Notes under the pieces: generated by a model | Told to the model about the DNA's origin: nothing | Seen by the model: only the letters and a program-made list of their open reading frames with translations | Database searches by the model: none | Origin: Candidatus Falkowbacteria bacterium | GTDB lineage: Bacteria; Patescibacteriota; Patescibacteriia; Patescibacteriales; UBA12465 | Direction of reading: 5' to 3' | Assembly (NCBI GenBank): GCA_037137655.1 | Contig: JBAXJX010000001.1 | Coordinates: forward strand, 97,188-161,187 | DNA: 64,000 bases | Part shown: positions 8,475 to 30,008 of the stretch, in pieces | Position numbering within the stretch: position 1 is the first letter of the stretch | Layout of the letters: each line of letters begins with the position of its first letter | Position numbers and translations under genes: made by a program

Positions 8475-8498
8475 GTATGTTTTCCCCTGAAATCACCC

Positions 8499-8855: not shown

Positions 8856-8857
8856 TT

Positions 8858-9691: not shown

Positions 9692-9718
9692 TTTTAAAAT
9701 TTTTAAATTTAAATATAA

Positions 9719-9949
<231 letters not shown>

Positions 9950-9962
9950 TAATTTGACGAAT

Positions 9963-9994
9963 CGCCAAGTCTTAGCGGAATCCAAGACTTGGCG
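9963..9994 (+). other. Perfect 11-bp stem hairpin between atpE and atpF (no T-run)
   Basis: CGCCAAGTCTT-agcggaatcc-AAGACTTGGCG. It is not followed by a U-tract. Confidence 0.6.
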
Positions 9995-10029
9995 TCGGTT
10001 AGTTTATTATTTTATTTGTATTAAAATAT

Positions 10030-10518: not shown

Positions 10519-10521
10519 TTT

Positions 10522-10923
10522 ATGAAAATAACACCAAAACAATACGCTCAGAGTTTATATGAATTAGCGGCTGACAAACCAGAAGCTGAGGTTTTAGTGG
10601 TGTTAAAAACTTTTGTAGAAATGCTTATAAAAAATTTGGATTACGGTAAAATTGATGAAATATTGGCTAATTTCGCCAGAATTTATGATGAAGCACATGG
10701 TGAATTGGCGGTTAACTTAAGTAGCGCTCGAACTTTAAGCGCTGAATCAGAAAGTGATATTGCCAACTATCTAAAAAATAAAACTGGTTTTAGTAAAATA
10801 AATTTTTCTACCAAAATCGATACAGCTCTTATTGGCGGTATGGTGGTGCGTTACGGCGACAAGATTTTGGATGCTAGTTTAAAAAATAATTTAAATAATT
10901 TAAAAGATAAAATAAGTCAATAA
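10522..10923 (+). CDS. atpH: F1 ATP synthase subunit delta (short, 133 aa)
   Basis: Lies between atpF and atpA. The C-terminal [22 protein letters not shown] is OSCP-like. Confidence 0.85.
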
Positions 10924-10927
10924 TAAT

Positions 10928-12445
10928 ATGGCGAATAAAGATTTTATAATTGAACAGATTAAAAAGCAGATTAGTGATTTTAAAAATGAAATCAAAGAAC
11001 AAACTGTTGGTCGTGTTTTGAAAGTGTCTGATGGTATTGCTTTGATCTCCGGTTTAGCTGATGTCATGATGAGTGAAATTTTGATTTTTAAATCCAATGG
11101 TCATGAAATTTCTGGTGTGGCTTTGAACTTAGAAGAGAATATGGTTGGTGCAATTATTCTAGGCGAATTTACTATGATTAAGGAAGGTGATGAAGTACTA
11201 TCAACTAAAAGAATTTTGGAAGTTCCGGTTGGTGAAAAGTTAATTGGTCGAGTTGTTAATCCTCTTGGCGAACCAATTGATGGTAAAGGTAAAATTGAAG
11301 CGGCTGCCTTTTATCCAGTGGAAAAAATTGCGCCGGGTGTTATTACTCGCGCTTCAGTGAAAGATCCGATGCAAACTGGCATTAAGGCGATTGATGCTAT
11401 GATTCCAATTGGTCGTGGTCAACGTGAGCTTATTATTGGTGATCGTCAAATTGGTAAAACAGCGATTGCGATTGATGCAATTATCAACCAAAAAGGCCAA
11501 AACATGAAATGTATTTATGTTGGTATTGGTCAAAAAGAATCTAAGGTAGCTAATATCGTAGCTAAGTTAGAAGAATCTGGGGCCATGGAATATACCACCA
11601 TTGTTTTGGCTGGCGCTTCCAATCCATCTTCCTTATTATATATTGCGCCGTATGCCGGTTGTGCGATGGCCGAATATTTTTTAGACAAAGGTGAAGATGT
11701 TTTAATTGTTTATGATGATTTATCAAAACACGCCGTCGCTTATCGCGAAATCTCTTTGTTATTGCGCCGCCCACCGGGACGTGAAGCTTATCCGGGCGAT
11801 GTCTTTTATTTACATTCCCGACTACTCGAAAGAGCTTGTAAATTAAGTGCTGAATTTGGTGGTGGTTCAATTACCGCTTTGCCAATTATCGAAACTCAAG
11901 CCGGTGATGTCTCCGCTTATATTCCAACTAACGTGATTTCCATTACTGATGGTCAAATTTATTTGGAACCAGATTTATTTTACCAAGGTAATCGTCCAGC
12001 GGTGAATGCTGGCTTGTCAGTTTCGCGCGTTGGTTCTTCCGCTCAAATTAAAGCTATGAAAAAAGTGGCTGGCAAAATGCGTTTGGAAGCAGCCCAATAT
12101 CGTGAATTGGCGGCTTTCGCGCAATTTGGCTCAGATTTGGATATCGATACTAAAAATAAATTGGAACGCGGTAAACGTTTATATGAAATTTTAAAACAAG
12201 ATCAATACGCGCCAGTAGCCGTGGAGAAACAAGTTTTGCTTTACTATGGTTTGATTAATGGATTTTTTGACAATGTCCCGGTTGATCATGTCCGTGAATT
12301 TGAAGCTGGCTTATTAAAATATGCCGACTTAAATAATGACGCTTTGAAATTAATTGTGGACAAAAAAGAATTAAGCGAGGAAGTGGAAGTAGCAGTTAAA
12401 AAAGTGTTGGAAGATTATAAAGCGACTTTGGATTATTTAATTTAA
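10928..12445 (+). CDS. atpA: F1 ATP synthase subunit alpha
   Basis: P-loop GDRQIGKT. 505 aa, conserved throughout. Confidence 0.98.
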
Positions 12446-12447
12446 TT

Positions 12448-13317
12448 ATGGCTCAGACTAAAGAAATATCCCGCCGCATCAAATCAATTGCTAGTACTAA
12501 AAAAATTACTAAGGCAATGGAAATGGTGGCTGCGGCCAAAATGAGAAAAGCGAGCGAAGCCGTTTTAAAAACTCGGGCTTACGCTCATTTGAGTTGGGAA
12601 ACAATTTTAAACTTATCTCGTTTAGCCCAAAGCAAAAATCAAGATTTACATCCTTTGCTTAGTAAGCGGGCTGAGGTGAAGCGTGTGGCTGTAATTTTAA
12701 TTACTTCCAACCGCGGTTTATGTGGTGGTTTTAATGCTGCAATAATTAATAAGGTTAGAGATGCTATTCAAAAAGATGGACTTCCAGCCGATATGATTTT
12801 GGTGGGACGAAAAGGTGCGATTTTACATAATCAAGGTTATGAAGTTGTGGCCGAATTTCCAAAAGCTGATTTGCTTGTAAATTCTAACGAAACCAATCCG
12901 ATCGCCTTGCTAGCTATTGCTGATTTTTTGTCCGGTAAATATGATAAAGTTTTATTAGCTTATACTGATTTTGTTAGTCCGGTAAAACAAGTTCCACGCG
13001 TTAAACAATTATTGCCAGTAGAAATGGATAGTGAAAGTGAAGATGAAGAATTGACTAGTGATTACACTTTTGAGCCGAGTCCAAGTGAAGTTTTAAATCT
13101 AATGATTCCGAAATTGGTGGAAGTCCAATTGTATCAAGCTTTACTTGAATCGAATGCCGCGGAGCACAGCGCTCGGATGACTTCCATGCATCAAGCGACT
13201 GAAGCGGCAACTGATATGGTGAGCGAATTAACTTTGTATTATAACAAAGCGCGTCAAGCTTCGATTACAGCTGAAATTGCAGAAATTAGTGCTGGGGCTA
13301 ACGCTTTAAATGAATAA
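12448..13317 (+). CDS. atpG: F1 ATP synthase subunit gamma
   Basis: N-terminal IKSIASTKKITKAMEMVAAAKMRKA and C-terminal ITAEIAEISAGANAL. Confidence 0.95.
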   Translation: MAQTKEISRRIKSIASTKKITKAMEMVAAAKMRKASEAVLKTRAYAHLSWETILNLSRLAQSKNQDLHPLLSKRAEVKRVAVILITSNRGLCGGFNAAIINKVRDAIQKDGLPADMILVGRKGAILHNQGYEVVAEFPKADLLVNSNETNPIALLAIADFLSGKYDKVLLAYTDFVSPVKQVPRVKQLLPVEMDSESEDEELTSDYTFEPSPSEVLNLMIPKLVEVQLYQALLESNAAEHSARMTSMHQATEAATDMVSELTLYYNKARQASITAEIAEISAGANALNE

Positions 13318-13321
13318 TTAA

Positions 13322-14743
<1,422 letters not shown>

Positions 14744-14751
14744 AATATTTT

Positions 14752-15186
14752 ATGTCTGAAAATAAAACTATAAAATTCGAAATCGTGACTCCAGAAAGAA
14801 CTGTTTTAAAAGAGCAGGTTCTACAAGTAACTGTACCAACGGCTGATGGTGAAATTACAGTTTTGCCCCACCATATTCCTTTGGTCTCAATCTTGCGTCC
14901 TGGTGTGATTGAAGTAAAAAATGAAGCGGGGGAGATGGAAATTATTGCTTGCTCCGGTGGTTTTATTGAGGTGGCTCATGATAAAATTGTAATCTTAGCT
15001 GATACTGCAGAACGGGCGATCGAGCTTGATGAAGCTCGAATTGAAGAAGCGCGCGCTAAAGCAGAGGAACTCAAGAAAAATAAAGATGTCGATGCGGTTA
15101 AATTCGCTGAGGCGAGTGCCATGATTGAAAAACAATTGGCCCGAACCCGAGCAGTTCGTCGCTGGCGCAAATTAAAAAATTTATAG
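14752..15186 (+). CDS. atpC: F1 ATP synthase subunit epsilon
   Basis: N-terminal beta-sandwich (KFEIVTPERTV...) followed by a C-terminal helical hairpin. Last atp gene. Confidence 0.95.
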   Translation: MSENKTIKFEIVTPERTVLKEQVLQVTVPTADGEITVLPHHIPLVSILRPGVIEVKNEAGEMEIIACSGGFIEVAHDKIVILADTAERAIELDEARIEEARAKAEELKKNKDVDAVKFAEASAMIEKQLARTRAVRRWRKLKNL

Positions 15187-15196
15187 TTCGAAATAT

Positions 15197-15736
15197 ATGA
15201 AATTTTTAAAATTGTTAAAAGTTGTTTTATTTCCACCACGCGTAACTGAAAAAGCCAAGAGTTTTAAAGACTCGGGTGATAAAGAATTTGAAGCCGTGGG
15301 AGAAGAAGTGAAAAAGTTAGTAAAAGATTTATATAACGGTCGCTCTTTGCGCATTCGAGCCGTTGATGGTGGCTCGACTAATGGAGAAGAGATTGAGATG
15401 ACCGCTTTGGGAAATGCTTATTACGATATCGATCGTTTTGGTTTGAGCTTTGTGGCTTCACCACGTCATGCTGATATTTTAATGGTGACTGGTCCAGTGA
15501 CTAGAAATTTGGAAACAGCGGTTCGAACAACTTATGAAGCAACACCACATCCTTGCGTTGTCGTGGCCTTGGGAGATGGTGCTTGTACAGGTGGAATCTG
15601 GAAAGATTCTTACGCCGTAGTTGGCCCAGTAGAAGCCGTGATTCCGGTTGATGTTCGTATTCCAGGTGATCCACCAAGTCCAACTGAAATTTTACGCGGT
15701 CTCTTGCAGGCTTTGCGTGTTAAAAAAGATAACTAA
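15197..15736 (+). CDS. NuoB/HycG-like small subunit of a complex-I / group-4-hydrogenase-like module, Fe-S ligands largely missing
   Basis: DRFGLSFVASPRHADILMVTGPVTRN and VIPVDVRIPGDPP are typical of the family. The Cys motifs read VDGGSTNGEE, GDGACTGG and PGDPP. Confidence 0.85.
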   Translation: MKFLKLLKVVLFPPRVTEKAKSFKDSGDKEFEAVGEEVKKLVKDLYNGRSLRIRAVDGGSTNGEEIEMTALGNAYYDIDRFGLSFVASPRHADILMVTGPVTRNLETAVRTTYEATPHPCVVVALGDGACTGGIWKDSYAVVGPVEAVIPVDVRIPGDPPSPTEILRGLLQALRVKKDN

Positions 15737-15746
15737 CACTATTTTT

Positions 15747-17738
15747 ATGGGAATAAGTTCTATTGCTCTAATTTTTTTCGTGACTTTGTCGGTTTTAATG
15801 GCGGCGGCAATTTTTTCTTTATTTAAAAGTACTTTTAAGATTGCGTCATTTTTATTTATTTTAACTGGAGTGTGTGGCACGGTTGCTGGGGCACTTTATT
15901 TTATTAATTTTCCGGGTGCTAAAATAGTATTAACACAATTTGGTTGGTTTTTTGGCTTTGCCCCGACTCTTACTTTTGTCTCCACCATCTTTTTAACTTT
16001 GGTTAATATCGTAGCAGTGGCCGTTGGTGTTTATTCTTTGCGTTATTTGGAAATTTACAAAAATACTTACAGTCCGCTTTTAACTCAGTTTTTGATGATT
16101 GTTTTTGTGTTCGGCATGCAATGCGTGTTACTGGCGAACAATGTTTTTTCTTTTATGGTTTTTTGGGAGTTGATGTCCATCAGTTCTTTTTTCTTAGTGT
16201 TATCCGATAAATCAATTGAATCGTTTAATGCTGCTTTTTTATATTTCATCATGACCCATTTAGGCGCGCTCTCAATTTTGGGCGGCTTTTTAATTCTTGG
16301 CGGTGGATCATTAAATTTGAATTTCAGTGATTTGGCGAGCGCCAGTCAAGCTTTGTCGCCGAGTTTATTGGTTACTTCTTTTTGTTTATTGTTATTCGGC
16401 TTTGGTTCTAAGGCTGGTTTGGTTCCTTTTCATGTCTGGTTGCCGGAAGCGCATCCACAAGCTCCAAGCAATATCTCTGCTTTGATGTCTGGTTTAATGT
16501 TGAAGATTGCCGTATATGAATTTTTGTTAATCGTCCTTAGTTTTACTAATTTACCGCTTTGGATTTCTTTGTTAGTTATGGCACTTGGTTTGATCTCTGG
16601 CTTTGTCGGGGCTTTGCGCGCCGCACTAGAAACCGATATTAAACGCGTTTTTGCTTATAGTAGTATTGAGAATATGGGAATTATTTTTTCCATTCTTGGC
16701 TTAGCTCTTTTTGTATCTTCTTATCATGGCGACGTTTCTTTGGCCGCCTTTGCCTTGCCACTTATTGTCTTTGCCATATTTCACGCTATTAATCATGCTT
16801 TCTTTAAGACCGCTTTATTCCTTTCTAGTGGTGTAATTATCGGACGTTTGCATTCTCGCAGTTTGGAAATTATGGGTGGCATTGCTAAAGCCTTACCATT
16901 ATTTTCCGCTGTTTTCCTATTGGCAATTTTAGGTGCTTTGCCATTACCACCATTTGGTACTTTTTTTGGCGAATGGGGTTTTATAAAAACAATTATTTCT
17001 TTGTTTAGTTTGACGACCGATCAAACAGTGATTGCTGTATTGATTGCTAATATTTCCATGATCGGACTTATTGGTGGTTTGGCGGTGTTTGCCATGATTA
17101 AGACTTTTGCTGTTTCGATGTTAGGCTTACCACGCGATAAACACCATGAAATAAAACCAGAGGCCGGTGATAACTTATTGATTTATCCAATTTTAGTTTT
17201 GGTAGCATTAGTAATCGTGACGGGTATTTTTGCCCAAGCTCTAGTGGCTTTCTTAAAAAATCACATTATTGCTGGTAACGCTATGGCCCCAGTTTTTTCT
17301 GGCTTAGATATTTCTTCGGTATATTTATTTGGGGCGATTGCTTTGTTTGTTTTATTGGCTTATGGTTTGGCTAATTTACTTGGTCGCCGTAAACAAGAAC
17401 GGCTTTATCATACTTGGGATTGCGGCCAAGCAATTGATGCTAGTATGGAATACACTGCTACCGCTTTTGCCGCGCCAATTCGTTTTTTCTTTTCGGGTAT
17501 TATTAAACGTAACCGCGTAATTACAAGCGAACCAATCGTGCCGACTAATATTTGGATTAGAAATTATAAACATCAAATTTCAATTGATTCAGTTTTGCGT
17601 GAAAAAATTTATGAACCGATTGCGAATTTAATGGTTTATTTTTCTGATAAGATAAAAACAATCCAAAATGGCAGAATCCAATATTACTTATTAATATTAT
17701 TCTGTACTTTAATTATTGTATTAAGCATTGCCTTATGA
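15747..17738 (+). CDS. HyfB/NuoL/MrpA-like antiporter-type membrane subunit
   Basis: Polytopic. The motif VPFHVWLPEAHPQAPSNISALMSG is typical of the NuoL/M/N family. The start was moved to the ATG at 15747 (MGISSIALIFF...), 11 nt after the upstream stop. The track start at 15648 overlaps the upstream gene by about 90 nt. Confidence 0.85.
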   Translation: MGISSIALIFFVTLSVLMAAAIFSLFKSTFKIASFLFILTGVCGTVAGALYFINFPGAKIVLTQFGWFFGFAPTLTFVSTIFLTLVNIVAVAVGVYSLRYLEIYKNTYSPLLTQFLMIVFVFGMQCVLLANNVFSFMVFWELMSISSFFLVLSDKSIESFNAAFLYFIMTHLGALSILGGFLILGGGSLNLNFSDLASASQALSPSLLVTSFCLLLFGFGSKAGLVPFHVWLPEAHPQAPSNISALMSGLMLKIAVYEFLLIVLSFTNLPLWISLLVMALGLISGFVGALRAALETDIKRVFAYSSIENMGIIFSILGLALFVSSYHGDVSLAAFALPLIVFAIFHAINHAFFKTALFLSSGVIIGRLHSRSLEIMGGIAKALPLFSAVFLLAILGALPLPPFGTFFGEWGFIKTIISLFSLTTDQTVIAVLIANISMIGLIGGLAVFAMIKTFAVSMLGLPRDKHHEIKPEAGDNLLIYPILVLVALVIVTGIFAQALVAFLKNHIIAGNAMAPVFSGLDISSVYLFGAIALFVLLAYGLANLLGRRKQERLYHTWDCGQAIDASMEYTATAFAAPIRFFFSGIIKRNRVITSEPIVPTNIWIRNYKHQISIDSVLREKIYEPIANLMVYFSDKIKTIQNGRIQYYLLILFCTLIIVLSIAL

Positions 17739-19327
17739 TATTAAATCAAATTTTTGCAACAATTTTGCAAACCATTTTAATTTTATTACTTGCGCCTTTT
17801 GCGGTGGGGCTAACTCGCTTTTTAAAGGCTCGTTTTCAAGGTCGTCGTGGACCATCACCTTTTTTACCGTACTTCGCTTTGGCGACTATGTTCCGTCGTG
17901 AAATGGTAATTTCTAAATCAACTTCTTGGGTTTTTCGCGCGGCACCATTTGTGGTTTTTGCCTCATCTTTAGCCTTGGCTTTGATGTTACCACTCGTTTT
18001 TCGTTTTGGTATTTTTGGATCCTTGGGTGATTTTTTGGTAATTTCCGGTATTGTGATGCTCGGTTCCATTTTCTTGGTTTTTGGCGGTATGGATGCGGCC
18101 AGTGCTTTCGGTGGTATGGGTTCAAGCCGCGAAATGACTTTAGCCGCACTATCGGAAACTTCATTAATTTTAATTTTTGCGACTTTAAGTTTTGTAAATA
18201 AATCATTTCAAGTGGATAATTTATTTGGCGCTCAAAGCGTAGTGGCTCATCCTTATTTATTATTATCGATGTTTGCTTTTGTACTTATTTCTTTGGCGGA
18301 GAATGCACGTTATCCAGTTGACAATCCAGCGACGCACTTAGAACTAACAATGGTGCATGAAGCGATGACGATTGAATATTCTGGTCGCTACTTGGCCTTG
18401 TTGGAATATGCTTCCGCTCTAAAATTAACAGCCTTTTTAATTCTAATCGCTAATTTTTTATTTCCAGCTTTAAGCAGCGCTAACCTTAGTTTGGTTGGCA
18501 TCTTACTGGCCTTATTATTTACCATTCTTAAAGTTAGCGTGCTATGCGCAGTCTTAGCTTTCTTTGAATCTGTTTTTGTGAAGATGCGTTTTTATCGCAT
18601 GAATGAATATTTGTCTTTAGCTTTTTTTGTCGCTTTGTTTGGCTTGATTGTGACTTTATCAGTTATTGGCTTAAATTTTGATTACGCCACTATTTGGGCG
18701 GCCTTGGCAATTTTCTTTGTTGTTTTCTTATTTGGTCGCGTTCGTCTTAATTCTATTTTGCGTTATTATGCTTTATCTTCGATTGCGATCGCTGGCATGG
18801 CCTACAATTTAGCTTTGAGTTCAGAACCGACTGAGGCGCTACATTTATGGATTTTTGCCGGAATTACAATTGCGATTAAAGTAATTTTAGTGCCGCTTAT
18901 TATTCGGACTGCTGAACGTCGTCAAAAACTCACTGCTAATTTACAATCGTTTTTGCGTCCAGCCTCCAGTTATTTCTTAGCTATTATTTTATTGTTGGTA
19001 ATTTATTGTGCCTTACATCGTAGTGCTGTAGAAGGCATAATTGCCTGGAGTAATATGATTTATGTGGCAGTAGTTTTGTCAGTTCTTGGATTAGCGACCA
19101 TGATTGTTCATCGTAATGTTTTCTCTCAGATTATTGGATTATTTATTGTGGAAAACGGTATCGCTGTCTTTATTTTAGCGACAGTAAAATCATTACCGCT
19201 GTTATTGGAGTTAGGTATTTTTGCGGTTGTAGCTCTTAGCGCTGTTATTTTATCAATTCTTAGTTCACAAATTAGAGAACAATATGGTTCCACGGACACG
19301 GAGAACCTACGTAATTTAACTGAATAA
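17735..19327 (+). CDS. Fusion of HycD/HyfC (NuoH-like) and HyfE (NuoK-like) membrane subunits
   Basis: The N-terminal roughly 310 aa have FLKARFQGRRGPSPF and HLELTMVHEAMTIEYSG (HycD/NuoH-like). The C-terminal roughly 215 aa have QIIGLFIVENGIAVFILA (HyfE-like). The ATGA start overlaps the upstream stop. Confidence 0.8.
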   Translation: MILNQIFATILQTILILLLAPFAVGLTRFLKARFQGRRGPSPFLPYFALATMFRREMVISKSTSWVFRAAPFVVFASSLALALMLPLVFRFGIFGSLGDFLVISGIVMLGSIFLVFGGMDAASAFGGMGSSREMTLAALSETSLILIFATLSFVNKSFQVDNLFGAQSVVAHPYLLLSMFAFVLISLAENARYPVDNPATHLELTMVHEAMTIEYSGRYLALLEYASALKLTAFLILIANFLFPALSSANLSLVGILLALLFTILKVSVLCAVLAFFESVFVKMRFYRMNEYLSLAFFVALFGLIVTLSVIGLNFDYATIWAALAIFFVVFLFGRVRLNSILRYYALSSIAIAGMAYNLALSSEPTEALHLWIFAGITIAIKVILVPLIIRTAERRQKLTANLQSFLRPASSYFLAIILLLVIYCALHRSAVEGIIAWSNMIYVAVVLSVLGLATMIVHRNVFSQIIGLFIVENGIAVFILATVKSLPLLLELGIFAVVALSAVILSILSSQIREQYGSTDTENLRNLTE

Positions 19328-19328
19328 T

Positions 19329-20786
19329 ATGAATATTTTTATTATTGCTTTTGCATTTTTAGCGAGTTTAATTTCTTTTTTACTGCCATCACAAAAAGTG
19401 GTGCGTCGGATTGGTGGTATTTTTGCGGCTGTTAATTTTGCGGCTGTGCTAATTTTGGTTTGGCCATATTTAAGTGGCGCCCAAAGAGTTTTTGATGGTG
19501 GCTGGTGGTTAATTGATAGTTTTTCGGCGTTAATGTTGTTGTTGGTTTCCTTTTTATATTTAGCTGCCGCTCTAGTTAGTAATCGCTACCTTAAACATGA
19601 ACACGAAGAAGGAATAATTAGTGATAAAAAAGTTAAACTTTATTTTTCGTTATTACATTTATTTGCTTTGTCGATGTTGGTAGTGTTGCTAGCTAACAAT
19701 ACTTTGTTATTGTGGATCGCTTTAGAGATGACGACTTTATCCTCCGTTTTTTTGGTTGGTTTTTATAAACAAAAATCTTCCATTGAAGCGGCGTGGAAAT
19801 ATGTGATTATTTGTTCCACTGGTATTACCTTGGGACTGATCGGTATTTTATTTTTCAGTTACGGTGCTGGACTAGCTAGCGGTGGCCTAGCGACTATTTT
19901 TTCTTTAAGTGCTTTAATCGCGCAAGCGGCGACAATTCCAGCGGCGATTGCTAAAATTGCTTTCGTCTTTATTTTTGTTGGTTTTGGTGTGAAGGTTGGT
20001 TTAGTACCAATGTATTCTTGGTTGCCAGATGCTCACAGTAAAGCACCATCACCAATCTCCGCTTTCTTTTCTGGTATTTTATTAAATGTTGCCTTGTATG
20101 TAATTATTCGTTTCCAAGTTTTAACTAACGCGGTTATTGGAAACAGTCAGTGGACCACAACTTTATTTTTAGTTTTTGGTTTGGCTTCAGTTTTGTTGCC
20201 GGTGTTTATGATGATTACCCAAAAGAATTACAAACGCTTATTGGCTTATTCTAGTATTGAGCATATGGGTTTGATATTGCTAGCTTTATCAGTACCACCG
20301 CTTGGTATTATTGCAGCCATCATTCATATGATTGGTCACACTTTAGCGAAATCGAGTTTATTTTTTGGCGCCGGTGAAATTTTAATTGCTTACAAAACTA
20401 CTAGTATTGATAAAGTGCGAAATCTATTTAAAAACATTCCACGCACTGGCCTCTTATTTGTGTTAGGAATTTTGGTAATTATTGGTTTACCGCCAACCGC
20501 TTTGTTTATTAGTGAATATACGATGTTTGCCGCTTTAATTAAAGCTCATCTTGGTATCGCTTTGTTGGTGTTTGCGGCTTTGAGCGCGATTGCTTTTGCC
20601 ATGTTACGTTTAACAATCATGATGACTTTGCCAGATTCAAGTGCACCAGTTATGCCGAAAGAGAAATGGAACATTACTCATGTTGTTATGATCAGTGAAA
20701 TTATTTTAGTGGTGTTATTATCATTTTGGATATCATCACCAAGCGGTATGAATTTTATTAATTCAATTGCGCGCAATTTGATTTAA
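19329..20786 (+). CDS. HyfF/NuoN/MrpD-like antiporter-type membrane subunit
   Basis: VPMYSWLPDAHSKAPSPISAFFSG and LLAYSSIEHMG. Confidence 0.85.
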   Translation: MNIFIIAFAFLASLISFLLPSQKVVRRIGGIFAAVNFAAVLILVWPYLSGAQRVFDGGWWLIDSFSALMLLLVSFLYLAAALVSNRYLKHEHEEGIISDKKVKLYFSLLHLFALSMLVVLLANNTLLLWIALEMTTLSSVFLVGFYKQKSSIEAAWKYVIICSTGITLGLIGILFFSYGAGLASGGLATIFSLSALIAQAATIPAAIAKIAFVFIFVGFGVKVGLVPMYSWLPDAHSKAPSPISAFFSGILLNVALYVIIRFQVLTNAVIGNSQWTTTLFLVFGLASVLLPVFMMITQKNYKRLLAYSSIEHMGLILLALSVPPLGIIAAIIHMIGHTLAKSSLFFGAGEILIAYKTTSIDKVRNLFKNIPRTGLLFVLGILVIIGLPPTALFISEYTMFAALIKAHLGIALLVFAALSAIAFAMLRLTIMMTLPDSSAPVMPKEKWNITHVVMISEIILVVLLSFWISSPSGMNFINSIARNLI

Positions 20787-20797
20787 TTATAAACCTT

Positions 20798-22363
20798 ATG
20801 ACTACTATTGAAATTCTAAAAAAATATAAAATTGAAAATTTTTCGGAGCAGGGAAATATGATTACCGTTAAAGTAACTAAAGATGTTTTTACATCCTTAG
20901 CCACTTCTTTGGCCAACGAAGAAAATTTACCTTTGTCGTCGCTTTATGCCACTGATGATCGTCAGGTTAGTAATACTTTTGGTGTGCACGTTTTATTTGC
21001 TAATGACGCGGCGCATGACTGGTTATTGGTTTCAACCGAAGTTTTGACAACAGAGCCAAGTTACCCGTCGTTAACTGCCACGGTTATGGCGGCTCATTGG
21101 TATGAACGTTATTTACATGATATGTTTGGCATCACACCGCTTGGTCATCCAGATTTACGTCGTTTAGTGAGTCATGAAAATGTGCCGGAAAATGTTTATC
21201 CATTACGCAAAGATTTCGCCTGGAATACTAAAATGGAACATGCTAATGTGCCATATCCAATGGCGCACGTGGAAGGTGAGGGAATCTATGAAATTCCAGT
21301 CGGACCAATCCATGCTGGTATTATCGAACCGGGTCATTTCCGTTTTAATGTGGCCGGTGAAAGAATTATAACTTTAGAAGGAAAATTATTTTTTACACAT
21401 AAGGGTATTGAAAAATTAGTGGAAGGTAAAGCTCCACTGGAGGCTTTGCCTTTTATTGAGCGCTTGTCGGGCGACATGGCTGCTGGCCATGCTCTAGCTT
21501 TTTGCCAAGCTGTCGAAGCTTTAGCTGGCTGTGAGGTGCCTAAACGGGCGCAGTTATTGCGTGTTTTATTGTTAGAATTGGAACGCGTAACAATGCATAT
21601 TCACGACTTAGCTAATATTGGTGGTATGGGTACAGGTTTTAGTTTTATTGCAGCTAACGGTTTTCGGATTAAAGAAAGAATGGTGCGCTTATCAGATGAA
21701 TTATTAGGCAATCGTTTTTGGCGCGGTGAAATTGTTCCAGGTGGGGTGGCTAAAGATTTGAGTACCGAGAAATTAGCTGCTATTTTACCAGTATTGCAAG
21801 CAGCTCAAGTTGAAATAAACAAAATTGTTAAAATCGCTTTGTCATCCGATGGTTTTTTGGATCGCTTACAAACTACCGGTGTTTTACCACTTGAAGCGGC
21901 TAAAGCTTTCGGCGGTGTTGGTTTGCCGGTGCGTGCCTCTGGCTTTGATCGTGACGTCCGTCGTGACCATCCCGATGCCGTTTACAAAGAATTGGCAGTC
22001 AATGTTCAATTAAAGACTGTTGGTGATGTTCATGCTCGCTATTTGTGTCGTATTAACGAAATTGATGAATCGGTGCGTTTAATTGACGCAGTGCTTAAGC
22101 AATTGACAGGCAATTCCGATAAGAATATTATAAATGAGTGTCAAATTAAAGATGGTGTAACAATTGGGGCAGTAGAGTCATGGCGCGGTGAAATTATTTG
22201 CGCTTTGCATTTTCAGAATGGTAAAATTAGTCGTTGTTTCCCCCGTGACCCATCATTTTGTAATTGGGCATTATTCGCGATTATTGGCCCAGGGAACATC
22301 GTTCCAGATTTCCCGTTATGCAATAAATCCTTGAATTTGAGCTATTCTGGTACTGATATGTAG
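20798..22363 (+). CDS. NuoC+NuoD-type (HycE/HyfG-like) large subunit lacking all four Ni-Fe cysteine ligands
   Basis: VGPIHAGIIEPGHFRFNVAGERI...HKGIEK is typical of the family. The N-terminal metal motif reads ERLSGDMAAGH. The C-terminus reads SLNLSYSGTDM-stop. Confidence 0.85.
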   Translation: MTTIEILKKYKIENFSEQGNMITVKVTKDVFTSLATSLANEENLPLSSLYATDDRQVSNTFGVHVLFANDAAHDWLLVSTEVLTTEPSYPSLTATVMAAHWYERYLHDMFGITPLGHPDLRRLVSHENVPENVYPLRKDFAWNTKMEHANVPYPMAHVEGEGIYEIPVGPIHAGIIEPGHFRFNVAGERIITLEGKLFFTHKGIEKLVEGKAPLEALPFIERLSGDMAAGHALAFCQAVEALAGCEVPKRAQLLRVLLLELERVTMHIHDLANIGGMGTGFSFIAANGFRIKERMVRLSDELLGNRFWRGEIVPGGVAKDLSTEKLAAILPVLQAAQVEINKIVKIALSSDGFLDRLQTTGVLPLEAAKAFGGVGLPVRASGFDRDVRRDHPDAVYKELAVNVQLKTVGDVHARYLCRINEIDESVRLIDAVLKQLTGNSDKNIINECQIKDGVTIGAVESWRGEIICALHFQNGKISRCFPRDPSFCNWALFAIIGPGNIVPDFPLCNKSLNLSYSGTDM

Positions 22364-22383: not shown

Positions 22384-22412
22384 TTGACAAAACGTTTTAT
22401 TTATGATATAAT
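22384..22412 (+). promoter_or_regulatory. Near-consensus extended -10 sigma-70 promoter
   Basis: TTGACA (22384-22389), 17 nt spacer, TGaTATAAT (22404-22412). Confidence 0.75.
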
Positions 22413-22435: not shown

Positions 22436-22484
22436 TTGAACATTAAAAATTAAATTAAATCTAATCTTAAAAAACGGAGGTTTT

Positions 22485-23588
22485 ATGTCGAATGATGGTA
22501 GTTTGATCGATTGGTTAAAAGGTGTTAATGGTGAGTACTCGCAGAGATTTTGTAGTCCTGGCGCCCAAGCTGAAAGAAGATCTTTTTGGTTGCGGTATCC
22601 GGTTGGGCTTTTCTGTTTCGGTTGCATGGACGGTCGCAACAATATTCACAACGCTACGGAGTTACCGGCCGGAATAATGAAAAATTATCGTCATGCCGGT
22701 CCTTGGGAATGGTCAAATTCTTTAGACCAACTTTTTTATGGCGATTTGATGCATTGGATTGATCAAGGTAAAGAATGTCTAGTTTTTGTAAGTTATCATT
22801 TTTCGAAATCGAACAAGGATTGGGGCTGTGCTGCTTTTGAATGTAATACTGACAAAGCCATCGCGTCCAATATTAGCTTCAAGGAAAAAATTGACCGAGT
22901 TTATGGCACCGATAGTGCGGTTTTCTCGGTTCTTCTTGGCTTTGAAACTGATGAAGAATCGATGATAATTCATGGCTGCGATTGTGATCAAGTTTTACGA
23001 GTGGCGGATTTGACTGAATTTAATGAGGCTGAGATTAAAGAAACGCTAACAACTTTATTTCCAAAATTTTCTTTAGAAGTTAAGGATTTGTTATTGCGCT
23101 TGATTTCTGGAAATTTTAATCATGTTTCAAAGAACCGTCGAAAAAATCGTCCAGCCATTGCTCTAAATCATAATGAGCGCGTGGTTGCCGTTGGACAAGG
23201 ATTAGGTTGGTTTTATCGTCCAAATCAGGCGATAATTATTGGAATGCATTCCAATAAATCGGGCGAAGCTATAGTAAAAGCGGTTACGATAGTTTATGAA
23301 AATTTACTTAGCGGTCGCATTTCCAGGGAAAAAGGTTTTATTCTTTTGGCGTCAGCCTCATTTCGGCGCGACGTCAGAGCGGAAAAATTGATGGGTTGTG
23401 TGGGAAGTGAAGAAAGAAGGGCTTGTGAGCGGGCCAAGGAAAACATGCGATTTGCCTTGGAAGTGATTGAAGCTGGTTTGCCAGAGGAAATCTATTCCGA
23501 GCTGTTATCGTATATGCATTTCCTTACAGTCATAACCGATTTGGACACCGGAAAATTCATCGAGGTGAAAGATGTTAATCTCGATTAA
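22485..23588 (+). CDS. Hypothetical protein with beta-carbonic-anhydrase-like (CsoSCA/DabA-style) Zn-site pattern; function unverified
   Basis: The CDS itself is well supported by the GGAGG SD, its own promoter and its own terminator. The functional call rests only on FGC47-M-D49-G-R51 (CxDxR), followed 58 residues later by YH105-x9-C115 (VFVSYHFSKSNKDWGCAA). Confidence 0.4.
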   Translation: MSNDGSLIDWLKGVNGEYSQRFCSPGAQAERRSFWLRYPVGLFCFGCMDGRNNIHNATELPAGIMKNYRHAGPWEWSNSLDQLFYGDLMHWIDQGKECLVFVSYHFSKSNKDWGCAAFECNTDKAIASNISFKEKIDRVYGTDSAVFSVLLGFETDEESMIIHGCDCDQVLRVADLTEFNEAEIKETLTTLFPKFSLEVKDLLLRLISGNFNHVSKNRRKNRPAIALNHNERVVAVGQGLGWFYRPNQAIIIGMHSNKSGEAIVKAVTIVYENLLSGRISREKGFILLASASFRRDVRAEKLMGCVGSEERRACERAKENMRFALEVIEAGLPEEIYSELLSYMHFLTVITDLDTGKFIEVKDVNLD

Positions 23589-23610
23589 AAAAACGTTTTG
23601 AAACATTTAG

Positions 23611-23637
23611 AACCCTGCTATAAAGTAGGGTTTTTTT
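23611..23637 (+). terminator. Rho-independent terminator
   Basis: AACCCTGC-tataaa-GTAGGGTT followed by T7. Confidence 0.75.
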
Positions 23638-24177: not shown

Positions 24178-27100
24178 ATGAAAAAAATATTTTCAAAAAA
24201 GAATACCTTTATTTTCTCAGTGACACTTTTATCGTCGCTCGCGATTTTTGCTGTGGCTCGTCCGGCTCATGCCAGTGAAGTCATTGCCGGTATTATCGGC
24301 GGTATACTTTCAGTTGTCATTTATTTTATTGGGCAGCTTCTTTCTTTGGTAATTTCTGTTTTAATCTCTATTGCTCAATACAGTGCTTTTGGTACCGCCG
24401 CACCGGTCGTTTTTGGTTGGATGATTGTGCGCGATATTTGTAATATGTTTTTCGTACTCATTCTTCTTATTATTGCCTTTGCGACAATTTTACACGTGGA
24501 AGAATATAACTATAAAAAATGGCTGCCAAAATTAATTATGATGGCGGTCTTAATTAATTTCTCTCGTTTGATTTGTAATATTTTTGTGGATTTTGCCCAA
24601 GTGGTTATGTTAACCTTCGTTAATGGTTTTAAAGATGTTGGCGGCGGTAACTTAACTGAAATGTTGGGTATTAATGATTGGATCGGAACAATGTCAACCG
24701 ACCCAACGGCCACAGTTACTTTTACTACTATTGTTGGTACTTATTTATTGGCTTTGATTTATTCCATAATTGCTTTAATTACAGTTGTGACTATGGTGGC
24801 TGTTTTGGCTATGCGCATGGTCATGCTTTGGATTTATATAACTTTATCACCCTTAGCTTATTTGCTAAGTGCTTTTCCGCAAGGTCAACAATATGCTTCT
24901 AAGTGGTGGTCAGAATTCAGTAAAAATTTAGTGATCGGACCAATCCTAGCTTTTTTTATCTGGTTATCATTTGCTTCTTTAGGTGGCACAGCTGATTTAG
25001 CCGCTAACAACGCGACTGATCCGTTGAAAGGTATTCCTAGTGATCCAAGTAGTACGCCAAGTGTTGGTTTAACTGAATCCGGCTCGGCTGATAACATGAT
25101 TAAATTTATTATTTCCATCGGTATGTTACTTGGCGGTTTGCAAATTGCGCAGGAATTGGGCGGTGAAGCGGGTAAGATGGCCGGTAAAGTTTCTTCCAAA
25201 GGTTTCTCGATGGCGAAAGCTGGTGCGGGTGCAGCCGGACTTTATGCAGCTAAACGTGCTGGCGCAGGTGCAGCTGGCGCAGCCGGCAGCGCTGCTAATT
25301 GGGCTGGACAAAAAATTAATTTAGCCGGTAAAAGCGTCGGCCTTAAGGGTGATACTAATTTAATGGGTCGAGCCTTGCAAAAAACTGGAGCAATTGGAAC
25401 TGGTTTGCAGGCTGATATGATTACTACCAGAAAAAAAGCGGCGGTAAAATCACGCCAAGAGTTATTAGAAAAACTTGGTTTTGGCGAGACTGGCGCCACA
25501 GCTCTTGTTGAGGCTACTGAGCCAATAAAGAGACGTTTAGATTTTGGTGACAAAATTAAGAAAAGTATTAGCGCTAATACAACCAAAGGACAATCGTTGC
25601 TTACCGATGGTCAAGAATTAATAGATAGAGGTGAAGATGCTAAAGTTAAGGCTATGACCGCTGGTAAATTAAGACTGACCGGCGAAAAAGAAAGACAAGA
25701 AGGTGAAAACACTATCAATGATGCTGACAGAAAAATTAAATTCAATGAGAATGAAATTATTAATTTAGCTAAGAATAATATTAACGATCCTCGTATTGCG
25801 CAAATTAGACAGGAAAACAAAAAATTGGAAGACGACAAGATTCACGGACAGTCAATGATTGATAGTGGTCAATCCAAGCTTGATGATGTTGCCGCTATTG
25901 AAGCTGCTGCTGCCACTGCTGACGCTGACATTGCCAAGGGCGTGGCTATGAAAAATCAAGGTACTGAAATATTAAATAAAAAAGGATTTTCTTCTACTGC
26001 TTTTGGTAAAAATGTTATTAAAATGATTCCTAATATTGGTGATATGGCGGTTGGGACTACAAATAAAGCAGCTAAAAAAATGGCTGAAGAATCTTTGACA
26101 GCTAAAGATTTTGTTAAAAATATTAAAAATACTAAAGAGTGGCCGGATTATATAAGAGATACTGATGCGCATCAATGGGCTGGTAAGAGTAGTATGAATT
26201 CCCAACAAAAAGCCAACTTTAAAGCGATGGCCGGTGATCCTGAAGCCAGTGAAGGTGTTCGTGTTCAACTTGAAAAATGGAGCGGAGAAAGAAATGCGGA
26301 TGGTAGTCATGATAAAGATTTTCTTAAAGTGGCTGACGCTATTTCACGCGCGATTGCTGGACATCAAAAAGGTGGTGGTGATATGAAGAATTTAAGTGGA
26401 ATTTCAAGTCTCTTAACTACTGTTAGCTCGGAAGTTTCCAATCCAAAGGTTATGAAATCCCCAAGTGATTATAAAGACAAGGTTAGCTATTCTAATTATA
26501 ATCGGGAGCGATCTGTTGCTCAGGGCGGATTTAGCGCGGCGAAATTTAATGAAAACCAAGAGTCAGATAAAACTAAGAGCGCCAATAGTATTGCAATTGA
26601 TTTTGCTGAGTTGCAAGGCATTGCCTCTTTTGGTGGTAAGGATTTTAAAACTAATGCTGATGCGGCCAATTTAGATTCTGGTCAAATTAAAGACTTTACC
26701 GTTCATCTGGAAAGCAAATTACAGGGCATGAAACCAAATGATGGTGGCTACCAAGAATTACAAACCGCGATTAATAATTTAAAAAATAATAAAGTTGAGG
26801 CTTTATCAATTAGAAATTCTGGTGTTAAAAAAGGTTTCCGGGGTGATTTGGCGGCTGAATACCATGAAAATACTCATAAAGCTGGTGTTAAATCAGAAGA
26901 TTTGGCTCATGGCTTAGAGTCGATGATGATGGATATGCGCTTGACTGGTAGTGATAAAACTACAAAAGAAAACAATTCCTTTGAGGTTGGTCAAAAGGCA
27001 GCGGCTCTTGAAAGACAGGGCGTACCACATGATAAAATTTTAGAACAAATGAAGCTTGAGATTGTTGACCGTGGCGGTAAACATAAGGAAGCTTTTGCCC

Positions 27101-27345: not shown

Positions 27346-27350
27346 TAAAT

Positions 27351-28385: not shown

Positions 28386-28430
28386 GAAAACCTGGATCCC
28401 CGCCTGCGCGAGGATGACGGTTGAAAAAAT

Positions 28431-30005: not shown

Positions 30006-30008
30006 ACT

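Follow-up and report, generated by a model that had tools for sequence, protein, structure and literature searches.

A predicted redox-dead Ehr-like complex encoded between ATP synthase and carbonic anhydrase genes in Candidatus Falkowbacteria

Five same-strand genes (15197-22363, +) of a Candidatus Falkowbacteria MAG (CPR, tiny genome) are predicted from their sequences to encode a complex that belongs to the Ehr branch of the group-4-hydrogenase/complex-I superfamily and is redox-dead. All cofactor ligands have been lost, the membrane arm is conserved, and the module is located between an F1Fo ATP synthase operon and a carbonic anhydrase (CA) gene, an arrangement that gives a testable idea of what the enigmatic Ehr complexes do. 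We tentatively propose that the complex translocates protons independently of redox chemistry and is coupled both to CO2/bicarbonate chemistry and to the F-ATPase. Positions refer to the window, that is, the whole 64-kb stretch of DNA that was analysed.

Gene layout and linkage to the ATP synthase operon

At its 3' end, a complete F1Fo ATP synthase operon, atpI-BEFHAGDC (8592-15186, +), is extended by the module. Every gene of the operon has a Pfam match: an atpI-like gene (8592-8855) is followed by those for subunits a (8858-9691), c (9734-9949), b (10030-10518), delta (10522-10923), alpha (10928-12445), gamma (12448-13317), beta (13355-14743) and epsilon (14752-15186). Consensus matches suggest a sigma-70-like promoter ahead of the operon (TTGACT-18-TATAAT, 11/12; 8499-8528, +), itself preceded by a terminator-like hairpin (8448-8472). 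The c subunit lacks the Gln/Glu-Ser-Thr Na+ motif. The ehr-like genes begin 10 nt past the atpC stop, and no terminator-like site lies between atpC and the small-subunit gene in the window. Moreover, in 31 of the 37 CPR loci with enough flanking sequence the small-subunit gene has atpC at most 1.5 kb upstream of it, and two divergent Ehr lineages (~42% identity) occupy the same junction between atpC and a CA gene. The preliminary description of this DNA did not mention the atp operon directly upstream, and no report of the module directly 3' of the F1Fo ATP synthase operon in CPR bacteria was found in the literature searched.

The first gene (15197-15736, +) encodes a NuoB/HycG/MbhJ-like small subunit of 179 aa (Pfam Oxidored_q6, 1e-25). 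The second (15747-17738, +), whose ATG at 15747 lies 11 nt past the stop of the first (15736), encodes a NuoL/HyfB/HycC-like antiporter-like subunit of 663 aa with a single Proton_antipo_M match (9e-47), and overlaps the third through an ATGA at 17735-17738. The third gene (17735-19327, +) is a fusion of a NuoH/HycD/MbhM-like part (residues ~8-307; NADHdh, 1.5e-29) and a NuoK/HyfE-like C-terminal part (residues ~441-528; Oxidored_q2, 1e-5, which at 25.6 bits is slightly below the cutoff of 26.1); the latter is a separate gene in other lineages, namely in Uhrbacteria-type and non-CPR loci. The fourth (19329-20786, +) encodes a NuoN/M/HyfF/MbhH-like antiporter-like subunit of 485 aa, identified by one Proton_antipo_M match (7e-53) and by alignment to 6cfw_H. 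The product of the fifth (20798-22363, +) is a 521-aa large subunit with fused NuoC and NuoD/HycE-like parts, in which Pfam recognised Complex1_30kDa, Complex1_49kDa and the NiFeSe_Hases N-terminus, and whose best PDB match is HycE (7z0s_E, 6e-70). The ORF check and Pfam searches agreed to the nucleotide with the ORFs, five gene identities and junctions given in the preliminary description.

Cofactor ligands, membrane arm and conservation

Motif positions were fixed by phmmer alignment to solved structures and not by eye. The large subunit keeps 0/4 of the [NiFe] cysteines: HycE has RVCGICGFAH at the N-terminal motif, where the window protein has RLSGDMAAGH (S224 and M227; nt 21467-21478), and DPCYSCTD at the C-terminal motif, replaced by NLSYSGTD (S515 and G518; nt 22340-22351). 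The protein ends three residues after G518, and therefore the large subunit has no C-terminal maturation peptide. In the small subunit, aligned to 6cfw_J, 7z0s_G and NDUFS7, the positions of all four cysteines of the N2 (proximal) [4Fe-4S] cluster are taken by T61, E64, G128 and D158; GSCNGCDIE of MbhJ and GGCNGCEIE of HycG correspond to GSTNGEEIE, and PGCPP has become PGDPP. All of these losses had been read from the translations in the preliminary description, which nevertheless allowed that one N2 ligand at most, C130, might remain. This was too generous: since the canonical third cysteine (GAC in MbhJ and HycG, GSC in NDUFS7) aligns with G128, two residues off register from C130, and 10 of 41 CPR small-subunit relatives have Ile at the position of C130, none of the four is kept.

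Replacement of the N2 cysteines is common to 41/41 CPR small subunits, whereas the six nearest non-CPR Ehr proteins have lost the NiFe cysteines and kept all four N2 cysteines; the "beyond" in the earlier placement of the complex "in or beyond" the Ehr class is thus apt. Jaffe et al. (2020, PMC7304191) have already described a monophyletic CPR Ehr clade that has lost the NiFe cysteines. The additional N2 loss that the alignments indicate for this clade was not found reported in the literature searched. Three CPR-specific cysteines are conserved, C120 in the small subunit and C480 and C488 in the large subunit.

The CxxCxxCxxxC motif has zero occurrences in all six frames of the 64-kb window, and a Pfam scan of all window ORFs of at least 100 aa detected no hyp, hycI, FDH, HycB/F or NuoE/F/G/I, in accordance with the earlier claim that the window holds no Fe-S subunit, formate dehydrogenase or maturation gene. 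Likewise, no 2x[4Fe-4S] motif occurs in the ORFs of 47 CPR loci including their 10-kb flanks. A flavodoxin-like gene lies 21 kb from the module.

The membrane arm is intact, as first described, its charged channel residues being kept across 24-44 relatives. In both antiporter-like subunits (42-44 relatives) there is no or almost no variation at the TM5 Glu, TM7 Lys, TM11 Lys and TM12 Glu; E141, K222, H236, K253, K354 and E409 are conserved in the L-like subunit (42 loci), and E133, K222, H236, K341 and E396 are invariant or nearly so in the N-like subunit (44 loci). The TM8 residue is Lys in the former and a conserved Asn (N253) in the latter. The NuoH/NuoK-like fusion, aligned to 7z0s_D and 6cfw_M, has nine acidic channel residues that are invariant in 24 relatives.

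More than 100 homologues exist at identities of at least 60%, and the same substituted motifs (E-R-x-S-G-D...H, N-L-S-Y-S-G-T-D, GS[TSN]N[AG]EE and PGDPP) recur in 46-48 related loci, so the substitutions are not due to chance. Together with the invariant channel residues, the number of homologues and the conserved replacement motifs argue that the complex is under selection and not decaying. Profile alignment placed no cysteine at the former ligand positions, no adjacent or fused Fe-S subunit was found, and nothing assigned the large subunit to a bona fide catalytic [NiFe] group. Alignment and relatives thus support every step of the original reading of neither a hydrogenase nor a quinone reductase, but a complex-I-shaped ion translocator without electron input.

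Carbonic anhydrase genes beside the module

The next gene downstream, passed over in the preliminary description, encodes a CsoSCA-type beta-CA of 367 aa (22485-23588, +; Pfam CsoSCA_cat, 30.7 bits, cutoff 21.5) that is soluble and lacks the CsoSCA N-terminal domain. C47-x-D49-x-R51, H105 and C115 are invariant in alignments of 12 and 17 sequences, and the AlphaFold2 model (pLDDT 90.2, pTM 0.89) has CsoSCA 8thm (6e-17, TM 0.70), 9g4t and 2fgy as top Foldseek matches. The gene has a strong GGAGG ribosome-binding site, and the 121-nt gap separating it from the large-subunit gene contains a perfect match to the extended sigma-70 consensus (TTGACA-17-TG-TATAAT, 12/12; 22384-22412, +). The first terminator-like site 3' of the whole atp-ehr-CA block, again recognised by consensus match, is a strong hairpin with an 11 bp stem and T-run (23609-23634, +).

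Across the loci compared, the module is accompanied by genes that are not homologous to one another: CsoSCA-type CAs (13 loci), Cam/CcmM-type gamma-CAs (5 loci; PDB 3kwc 4e-36, Cam 1e-32), Pfam Pro_CA_2 beta-CAs (6 loci) and two unclassified families that show C-x-D...H-x-x-C motifs like those of beta-CAs (9 loci); the support for the "mini" CA-like family (8 loci) consists of motifs and weak profile similarity. A CA or CA-like gene is present in 27 of the 36 loci with both flanks, and one of a verified class in 18 of the 36; wherever a CA was matched in the loci, it lay at one of the block's junctions. At one locus a terminator parts atp from a unit in which a CA-like gene comes first and Ehr genes follow. 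Three non-CPR loci carry members of the CsoSCA-like family in Ehr-SulP-CA clusters, SulP being the family to which BicA-type bicarbonate transporters belong. A CA is absent from the surroundings of nine CPR loci with full flanks and of four non-CPR Ehr loci from genomes, and no fusion or overlapping stop/start joins a CA gene to an Ehr gene. Six close relatives have the order atpC-CA(-CA)-groES-groEL, with the Ehr module absent from the available flank, and therefore the CA may be a companion of the ATPase and not of Ehr; a CA homologue in Polyangiaceae has an unrelated gene context. A CA gene flanking the module was not reported in the literature searched.

Possible functions of the complex

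With the adjoining CA gene, the "no obvious input" of the preliminary description becomes a concrete hypothesis. The two antiporter-like subunits and the NuoH-NuoK-like subunit of the membrane arm would form a working proton or proton/cation translocator, and the peripheral NuoB/NuoCD remnant would hold neither a Ni-Fe site nor an Fe-S cluster, so electron transfer could not power the complex. Its genes are integrated at the 3' end of the F1Fo ATPase operon, and a cytoplasmic CA would be its partner. In a fermentative, quinone-less CPR host, the F-ATPase would hydrolyse ATP to generate a proton gradient, protons would pass through the antiporter-like channels of the Ehr-like complex, and this flux would be coupled to CO2 + H2O <-> HCO3- + H+, catalysed by the adjoining CA, yielding an energy-coupled machine that handles CO2, bicarbonate and protons. 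We infer a physical association of the CA with the complex, a direction of ion flow and a purpose, which may be DIC capture or pH homeostasis. What suggests coupling to the CA is gene neighbourhood; against it speak the promoter match and ribosome-binding site that the window CA gene has of its own. Moreover, a cytoplasmic CA working freely in both directions would short-circuit the build-up of bicarbonate, and few bicarbonate-consuming pathways are known in CPR bacteria.

A possible, though rather doubtful, alternative is a redox-independent secondary cation/proton antiporter that uses the complex-I membrane arm in the manner of Mrp. It would turn the F-ATPase proton gradient into one of Na+ (or K+), or serve pH homeostasis, the CA being an ATPase-linked cytoplasmic proton/bicarbonate buffer mechanistically uncoupled from the complex. 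A complex that lacks cofactors can be driven only by a gradient, the Lys/Glu chains of both antiporter-like subunits are intact, the module and the ATPase genes share an operon, and reviews propose that a reverse-running CPR ATPase drives antiporters or pH homeostasis (PMC11665869). The relatives in which the CA follows atpC without the module, and the nine CPR loci with the module and a CA in neither flank, also fit such an antiporter. However, no MrpB/C/E/F/G-type subunits were detected by Pfam scan, and this alternative leaves unexplained the retention of a NuoB/NuoCD remnant with highly conserved replacement residues, the recruitment of four or five unrelated CA families to the block, the position of the CA directly 3' of the large subunit or heading an ehr-only transcription unit, and the non-CPR Ehr-SulP-CA clusters.

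It is very improbable that the system runs in reverse, with CO2 hydration by the CA, or bicarbonate and CO2 out of equilibrium in CO2-rich habitats, feeding protons into the complex, which would export them and so build the gradient for ATP synthesis by the adjacent synthase. The same atp-ehr-CA linkage would accommodate this, and what supplies the near-universal CPR ATP synthase with any proton gradient is a recognised puzzle (PMC11665869), but by our estimate CO2 hydration near neutral pH yields only a few kJ/mol, far under the cost of one proton against a normal gradient; export of both H+ and HCO3- gives zero net charge separation, and the block in CPR loci has no bicarbonate exporter. Also very improbable is a surviving redox function, with electrons delivered by an unrecognised partner or a cofactor not ligated by cysteine, as proposed for FDH-Ehr complexes in Margulisbacteria and Saganbacteria. 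Docking of oxidoreductases has been suggested for Ehr complexes elsewhere (PMC6349859), and the CPR-specific cysteines and the distant flavodoxin-like gene could be enlisted for it; yet the N2 ligands are gone in every CPR relative, block and 10-kb flanks lack an Fe-S protein gene in 47 loci, the window has neither FDH nor NuoEF, and three scattered cysteines cannot make a relay to the former active site. That the module is a decaying, non-functional leftover of a laterally acquired hydrogenase operon would fit the loss of all catalytic ligands and the patchy CPR distribution ascribed to lateral transfer (PMC7304191), but is effectively refuted by intact ORFs of conserved length at 55-88% identity among Falkowbacteria, Moranbacteria, Uhrbacteria, Gracilibacteria and Kaiserbacteria, by the invariant channel residues and by synteny conserved in very small genomes.

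The proposed proton translocation coupled to CO2/bicarbonate chemistry has a precedent in DabB/NDH-1 antiporter-like subunits, which couple proton movement to CA-like subunits (PMC13144422; 10.64898/2026.08.03.742399). Its function would be analogous to that of DabAB and of cyanobacterial NDH-1MS/CupA; however, DabA and CupA are gated and membrane-docked, whereas the CAs of the block are ordinary soluble enzymes with canonical active sites.

The five-gene module and its cofactor-ligand positions

Five co-oriented open reading frames (ORFs) occupy positions 15197-22363 and are joined through an 11-nt gap (15736/15747), an ATGA overlap (17735-17738) and, at the remaining two junctions, a 1-nt and an 11-nt gap, which bears out the gene coordinates and junctions of the preliminary description. 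Pfam searches assigned the small subunit (179 aa) to the NuoB/20-kDa family (Oxidored_q6), the L-like (663 aa) and N-like (485 aa) subunits to Proton_antipo_M, the HK fusion (530 aa) to NADHdh (NuoH) with a C-terminal NuoK-like Oxidored_q2 domain, and the large subunit (521 aa) to Complex1_30kDa, Complex1_49kDa and the N-terminal part of NiFeSe_Hases. The closest solved relatives are HycE (6e-70), HycG (1e-27) and HycD (6e-24) of the E. coli formate hydrogenlyase, together with MbhL, MbhJ, MbhM and MbhH of the Pyrococcus membrane-bound hydrogenase MBH. Rfam and tRNA scans gave no match in or near the block.

Ligand positions were set by residue-by-residue HMMER alignment to solved hydrogenases. 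At the L1 site of the large subunit, aligned to HycE and MbhL, R-L-S-G-D-M-A-A-G-H replaces R-x-C-G-x-C-x-x-x-H, and the two cysteines correspond to S224 and M227. At the L2 site, N-L-S-Y-S-G-T-D-M-stop replaces D-P-C-x-x-C-x-x-[HR], with S515 and G518 at the cysteine positions. The large subunit ends three residues past the L2 site, where the mature HycE chain would end, and therefore has no C-terminal maturation peptide. All of this agrees with the substitutions and the missing peptide first read from the translations. In the small subunit, the four [4Fe-4S] ligand positions are occupied by T61, E64, G128 and D158, and the same loss was found in 41/41 relatives from CPR bacteria (Patescibacteria). 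The initial statement that at most one of the four ligands of this proximal (N2) cluster remains was correct for the first two positions and for D158, but the C130 that it retained is not at a ligand position: it lies two residues out of register with the canonical third Cys, which corresponds to G128, and is Ile in 10 of the 41 relatives. Thus, none of the N2 ligands survives. The two peripheral subunits have just three conserved cysteines, all of them CPR-specific: C120 of the small subunit (15554-15556; 39/41), and C480 (22235-22237; 41/46) and C488 (22259-22261; 45/46) of the large subunit. None aligns with a known cluster ligand, and their possible roles include a structural or novel metal site and a disulfide.

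A six-frame scan of the 64-kb window revealed no CxxCxxCxxxC motif, and Pfam scans of all its ORFs of at least 100 aa revealed no hyp, hycI, formate dehydrogenase, HycB/F or NuoE/F/G/I gene, in line with the first report that HycF/NuoI, HycB, formate dehydrogenase and hyp/hycI genes are missing from it; nor was a ferredoxin-type ORF found in 47 CPR loci with 10-kb flanks. A catalytic group 4 [NiFe] hydrogenase is rejected, since the L1/L2 cysteines, the proximal-cluster cysteines and, within the window, any maturation or 2x[4Fe-4S] genes are missing. An NADH:quinone oxidoreductase (complex I) is likewise rejected, given the lack of cluster N2 and, within the window, of NuoI and the NuoEFG module. 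The profile alignment and the relatives support the original reading of the module as an ion translocator of the Ehr-like (energy-converting hydrogenase related) type that is neither a hydrogenase nor a quinone reductase.

More than 100 database clusters are at least 60% identical to the large subunit, and all come from CPR lineages. One database protein, from a 965-kb contig of a Candidatus Falkowbacteria MAG, is identical to it, which makes the organism a CPR member. The motifs that have taken the place of the ligands are in turn conserved in a set of 48 CPR-type loci, made up of the window and 47 loci on one-genome-per-species contigs. In the large subunit they read E-R-x-S-G-D...H and N-L-S-Y-S-G-T-D, and in the small subunit GS[TSN]N[AG]EE, GDGA[C/I] and PG[DNS]PP. 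The module has both the complex-I-type TM5 Glu / TM7 Lys / TM12 Lys-or-Glu relay and the NuoH/NuoK acidic E-channel; in 42-44 loci there is little or no variation at the canonical proton-relay positions of either antiporter-like subunit, and nine acidic positions of the NuoH/NuoK-like fusion do not vary at all among 24 loci. The early impression that the membrane arm looks intact therefore holds across 24-44 loci. On grounds of conservation, a relic or decaying operon is essentially excluded.

Ehr complexes are relatives of group 4 that have no Ni/Fe ligands in the large subunit, and their function was still given as unknown as late as 2023 (PMC6349859; PMC10284858). By the definition used in these two papers the module belongs among them: its large subunit is homologous to group 4 and lacks Ni/Fe-coordinating residues, and its genes include those of Mrp/complex-I antiporter-like subunits. 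Jaffe et al. 2020 (PMC7304191) described CPR sequences without the NiFe cysteines that form a monophyletic clade within Ehr, and concluded that this clade cannot interact with H2. When 23 large subunits were compared in a rough neighbour-joining tree, that of the window grouped with the CPR lineage designated type A, apart from the Cys-containing Desulfosporosinus hydrogenases. The motifs E-R-x-S-G-D...H and S-Y-S-G are common to CPR and non-CPR Ehr, and S-G-D is present in all Ehr loci. The CPR clade differs from other Ehr in having lost all four small-subunit [4Fe-4S] cysteines, which are kept in 6/6 non-CPR Ehr loci examined (L045, L047, L051, L056, L085 and L106; L numbers denote the homologous loci compared), although the NiFe cysteines are gone there as well. 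Both sets are kept in the Desulfosporosinus control loci L048-L055, where L1 reads C-G-V-C. Most or all of the small-subunit cluster cysteines are also missing from type B, a divergent CPR-associated Ehr lineage (L064, L076, L087 and L095; ~42% identical). To judge by these alignments, the CPR clade goes beyond other Ehr complexes in the loss of the N2 cluster. It differs further in gene order (B-L-H(K)-N-CD in CPR, L-H-K-N-CD-B in other Ehr, where B is the small and CD the large subunit), and in being joined to the end of the ATP synthase (atp) operon with a carbonic anhydrase (CA) gene alongside. The Cys-less CPR Ehr large subunit was already known; what appears to be new is that no cofactor site is left at all, and that atp, Ehr and CA genes form a supercluster. 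No paper was found that ties an Ehr or CPR complex to CA, to the atp operon or to N2 loss, but most subscription journals were outside the scope of the search and this is absence of evidence only. In the Desulfosporosinus loci the gene order is L-H(K)-N-CD-B, with no room for HycF/NuoI between CD and B, and the modules contain no 2x[4Fe-4S] ORF; these relatives possibly represent the poorly characterised group 4f type.

Neighbouring genes in the window and at homologous loci

The module starts 10 nt past the atpC stop, and upstream of it lies a complete atpI-like/a/c/b/delta/alpha/gamma/beta/epsilon operon (Pfam). The preliminary description had the five genes right but missed this operon and the CA gene downstream. 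The linkage extends across CPR: of the 37 loci with enough flank, 31 have atpC no more than 1.5 kb ahead of the small subunit. A pattern scan, in which each site is a consensus match only, placed a terminator-like hairpin and a promoter-like site ahead of the atp genes (8448-8528), an extended sigma-70 consensus without mismatch (12/12 with TG) in the gap past the large subunit (22384-22412), and a strong terminator-like hairpin after the CA gene (23609-23634); the same scan found no terminator between atpC and the module. Judged by the Na+-binding motif, the c subunit is presumably H+-specific.

The next gene past the module, at 22485-23588 (367 aa), matches Pfam CsoSCA_cat with 30.7 bits against a cutoff of 21.5. 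A strong GGAGG ribosome-binding site precedes it at 22464-22484, in contrast to the five Ehr genes, which have no obvious Shine-Dalgarno sequence 5' of their starts. The residues C47-x-D49-x-R51, H105 and C115, corresponding to the Cys-His-Cys zinc ligands and the Asp-Arg dyad, are invariant in two alignments. The best Foldseek matches of the structural model (pLDDT 90.2) are three solved CsoSCA chains (8thm, 9g4t and 2fgy; E 6e-17 to 8e-14, TM 0.67-0.72). The product is thus predicted, from profile and model, to be a CsoSCA-type beta-carbonic anhydrase with a two-domain beta-CA fold. It shares with CsoSCA the catalytic domain, the degenerate duplicate domain, the zinc ligands and the Asp-Arg dyad, but lacks the CsoSCA N-terminal domain: the match begins at the catalytic domain, and the solved chains have about 460-540 aa. 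No shell or RuBisCO genes, which would indicate a carboxysome context, were found in the window.

CA-type genes of several families occur at the homologous loci. The CsoSCA-like family (A1) is beside the module in 13/48 loci, where it follows the large subunit or separates atpC from the small one. At these positions, a Cam/CcmM-type gamma-CA was found in five loci (4e-36 to CcmM, 1e-32 to Cam). Six loci have a tandem Pro_CA_2 beta-CA (A3; Pfam 1e-15 to 1e-19, with PDB matches that are weak and only to beta-CAs), and nine have members of two unclassified small families with C-x-D...H-x-x-C motifs, for which the evidence is motif-level plus weak profile matches. In total, 27 of the 36 loci with both flanks readable carry a CA or CA-like gene, of a verified class in 18, and all CA matches within the loci are at a block junction. 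The CA is 45 nt past atpC with no terminator in L041. In L058 the atp genes are followed by a terminator, and the unit beyond it begins with a CA-like gene and runs into the Ehr genes. The unclassified 'mini' family (A2) had no match in the PDB profile search or in Pfam, and hhalign of A2 against A1 and A3 was not significant (E 0.31, 0.043 and 0.0026, probability <=11%); the eight A2 loci therefore count only as motif-level candidates. In three Uhrbacteria loci a degenerate 'mini' paralogue without the Cys/His motifs lies directly 3' of the large subunit (L026:11697-12293, L027:11120-11740 and L058:11631-12254), so that the block there is flanked by an intact and a degenerate copy of one small family. 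A DUF4349 protein (about 310-340 aa) is encoded one to two genes past the large subunit in 12 Moranbacteria-type loci (L002-L018; e.g. L010:11678-12634 and L004:12845-13822).

The CsoSCA-like family was sized by exhaustive HMM search, word-indexed protein searches having given 5 and then 17 matches. It comprises about 256 clusters at E <=1e-30, nearly all stand-alone proteins of 340-390 aa, and long members (the 704-aa database protein P0189 and others) contain no extra Pfam domain that would represent a fusion to membrane or Ehr domains. A reverse search of metagenome contigs with the CsoSCA-like alignment returned 80 loci. The CA adjoins atp and Ehr genes in L062-L065, L076, L095 and L123; it directly follows atpC, with no Ehr in the available flank, in L066, L071, L086, L088, L092, L093, L112 and L139; and it forms part of a non-CPR Ehr - SulP transporter - CA - two-component regulator arrangement in L085, L106 and L138. 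SulP-CA alone was found in seven more loci. Other contexts were unrelated, including that of a Polyangiaceae genome whose CA homologue was checked and has no Ehr context. The varied contexts and stand-alone proteins indicate a general CA family repeatedly recruited to ATPase/Ehr blocks rather than a dedicated subunit. In L064 and L095, type B Ehr lies between atpC and the CA, and their close relatives L066 and L086 (atpD 84-93% identical) have no Ehr there; groES-groEL follows the CA gene(s) in all four. The junction between atpC and the CA gene thus looks prone to insertion or replacement, as a hot spot would be.

Elsewhere in the window, the run at 24178-33111 downstream of the block begins with large genes without a Pfam match (1055, 344 and 524 aa) and continues with a PrgI-family gene (30009-30452) and a TraG/VirB4-like P-loop ATPase (31165-33111), which suggests a type-IV-secretion/conjugation-like apparatus. 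A type-IV-pilin N-terminal methylation motif is present in the proteins at 6715-8436, 48224-49477 and 60293-61477, and a Fib_succ_major domain in those at 200-955, 48224-49477 and 60293-61477; in place of Fib_succ_major, Laminin_G_3 and InlB B-repeat (Flg_new) domains are present in the protein at 6715-8436. All four are candidates for pilus-tip proteins or adhesins of a kind typical of epibiotic CPR. An ART-PolyVal ADP-ribosyltransferase-domain protein (40509-41267) and a Zeta-toxin/AAA_33 kinase-like protein (52677-53189) are possible toxins or effectors. An MFS_1 fragment of 194 aa (42268-42852), which may be a truncated transporter gene, overlaps by 29 nt the start of a Cu-oxidase_4 (YfiH-like) gene (42824-43525). 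A single 508-aa ORF (46377-47903) contains phosphoribosyltransferase and OMP-decarboxylase domains (fused PyrE-PyrF), and pyrimidine synthesis is therefore encoded for its last steps at least.

Possible roles of the complex

The complex has no electron path, its ion-translocating arm is intact and conserved, and its linkage with the F-ATPase and with CAs of several folds is conserved. In a fermentative cell, the ATPase would build a proton gradient, and the complex would be driven by, or act on, that gradient, with a functional tie to CO2/HCO3-/H+ interconversion. Such a gradient-linked role with a tie to this interconversion is tentatively favoured, at somewhat less than an even chance. The main rival, which is itself rather doubtful, is a plain Mrp-like gradient converter, the CA serving only as a cytoplasmic buffer for the ATPase. 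In its favour are the atpC-CA blocks without Ehr, the window CA's own promoter (a consensus match), the canonical soluble nature of the CAs, and the generally low known bicarbonate demand of CPR bacteria. It concerns the mode of action; as a family assignment, the Mrp Na+/H+ antiporter was rejected for lack of the small subunits specific to Mrp, no Mrp family beyond Proton_antipo_M, NADHdh and Oxidored_q2 having been detected with Pfam. A cryptic redox enzyme and a CA-driven proton pump feeding ATP synthesis are both unlikely.

The favoured gradient-linked reading can be extended to the whole class: Ehr complexes may be gradient-driven CO2/bicarbonate machines rather than orphan redox enzymes, and in CPR, where they are cofactor-stripped, proton flow from the reversed F1Fo ATPase of the same operon might drive, or be gated by, CA chemistry at the peripheral arm. 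This extension is on the improbable side. If true, it would represent a further independent union of a complex-I module with a CA, after NDH-1MS/CupA, DabAB and the mitochondrial gamma-CA domain, and would assign a function to the Ehr class for the first time. Respiration-less Patescibacteria keep an ATP synthase, whose role in CPR is listed as unresolved in a recent perspective (PMC11665869), and the extension would account in part for this as well.

Ehr complexes are found in many phyla, including Nitrospira, Margulisbacteria, Elusimicrobia, Chloroflexi and CPR. CPR surveys (PMC9166423) and NCBI names alike call the module homologues 'NADH dehydrogenase subunits'. This naming is misleading for the CPR module. 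Counting it as NADH dehydrogenase or hydrogenase, as CPR surveys do, inflates the inferred respiratory or H2 capacity. The missing cofactor site, the wiring to ATP synthase and the repeated, unrelated CAs together give a specific and experimentally tractable hypothesis for a redox-free use of the complex I architecture, which bears on the role of the Patescibacteria ATP synthase.

Comparison with known systems

The E. coli formate hydrogenlyase and Hyf (group 4a, 7z0s) share with the module a NuoC-NuoD fusion and HyfB/HyfF-type membrane subunits. Compared with formate hydrogenlyase, the module lacks the NiFe site, the proximal cluster, HycF/HycB, FdhF, the C-terminal peptide and hyp/hycI. The small, large, NuoH-like and antiporter-like subunits of P. 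furiosus MBH (6cfw) and MBS/Mbx (6u8y) are homologous to those of the module, and MBS is a precedent for a group-4 relative with its NiFe site remodelled for other chemistry. Both MBH and MBS have three [4Fe-4S] clusters, take electrons from ferredoxin and carry a full Mrp-type Na+ module, whereas the module here has no cluster ligands and no detected MrpB/C/E/F/G-type subunits. Complex I (NuoA-N) has in common with it the NuoB, C, D, H, K, L and N homologues, the Lys/Glu relay and the E-channel acids; N2, NuoI, NuoE/F/G and a recognisable NuoA/J are missing from the module, which has only two antiporter-like subunits.

Among systems that include CA-like proteins, plant and protist mitochondrial complex I carries gamma-CA-fold proteins on a complex-I-type arm. 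CPR gamma-CA genes flank the module in five loci, and PDB matches of the CPR gamma-CA include the complex I gamma-CA subunits 7a23 and 8e73. Unlike the mitochondrial proteins, the CPR gamma-CA is of the Cam/CcmM type and is a neighbouring gene only, absent from the window. In DabAB, a complex-I-type antiporter-like subunit is paired with a beta-CA-fold protein and is driven by an ion gradient, not by redox chemistry (PMC13144422). In both DabAB and NDH-1MS/CupA, as at this block, a complex-I-type subunit is genetically paired with a CA-like protein. The block differs from both in having no DabA (DUF2309/PF10070) or CupA homologue, and in CAs that are soluble, canonical-site proteins of the CsoSCA, gamma or Pro_CA_2 type. 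The partner here is a five-subunit complex with a peripheral arm rather than the single DabB, and the coupling is indicated by gene neighbourhood alone. DabAB (PMC13144422) and NDH-1MS/CupA, in which a complex-I-type proton channel makes CO2 hydration vectorial, are the closest working analogues of the proposed mechanism.
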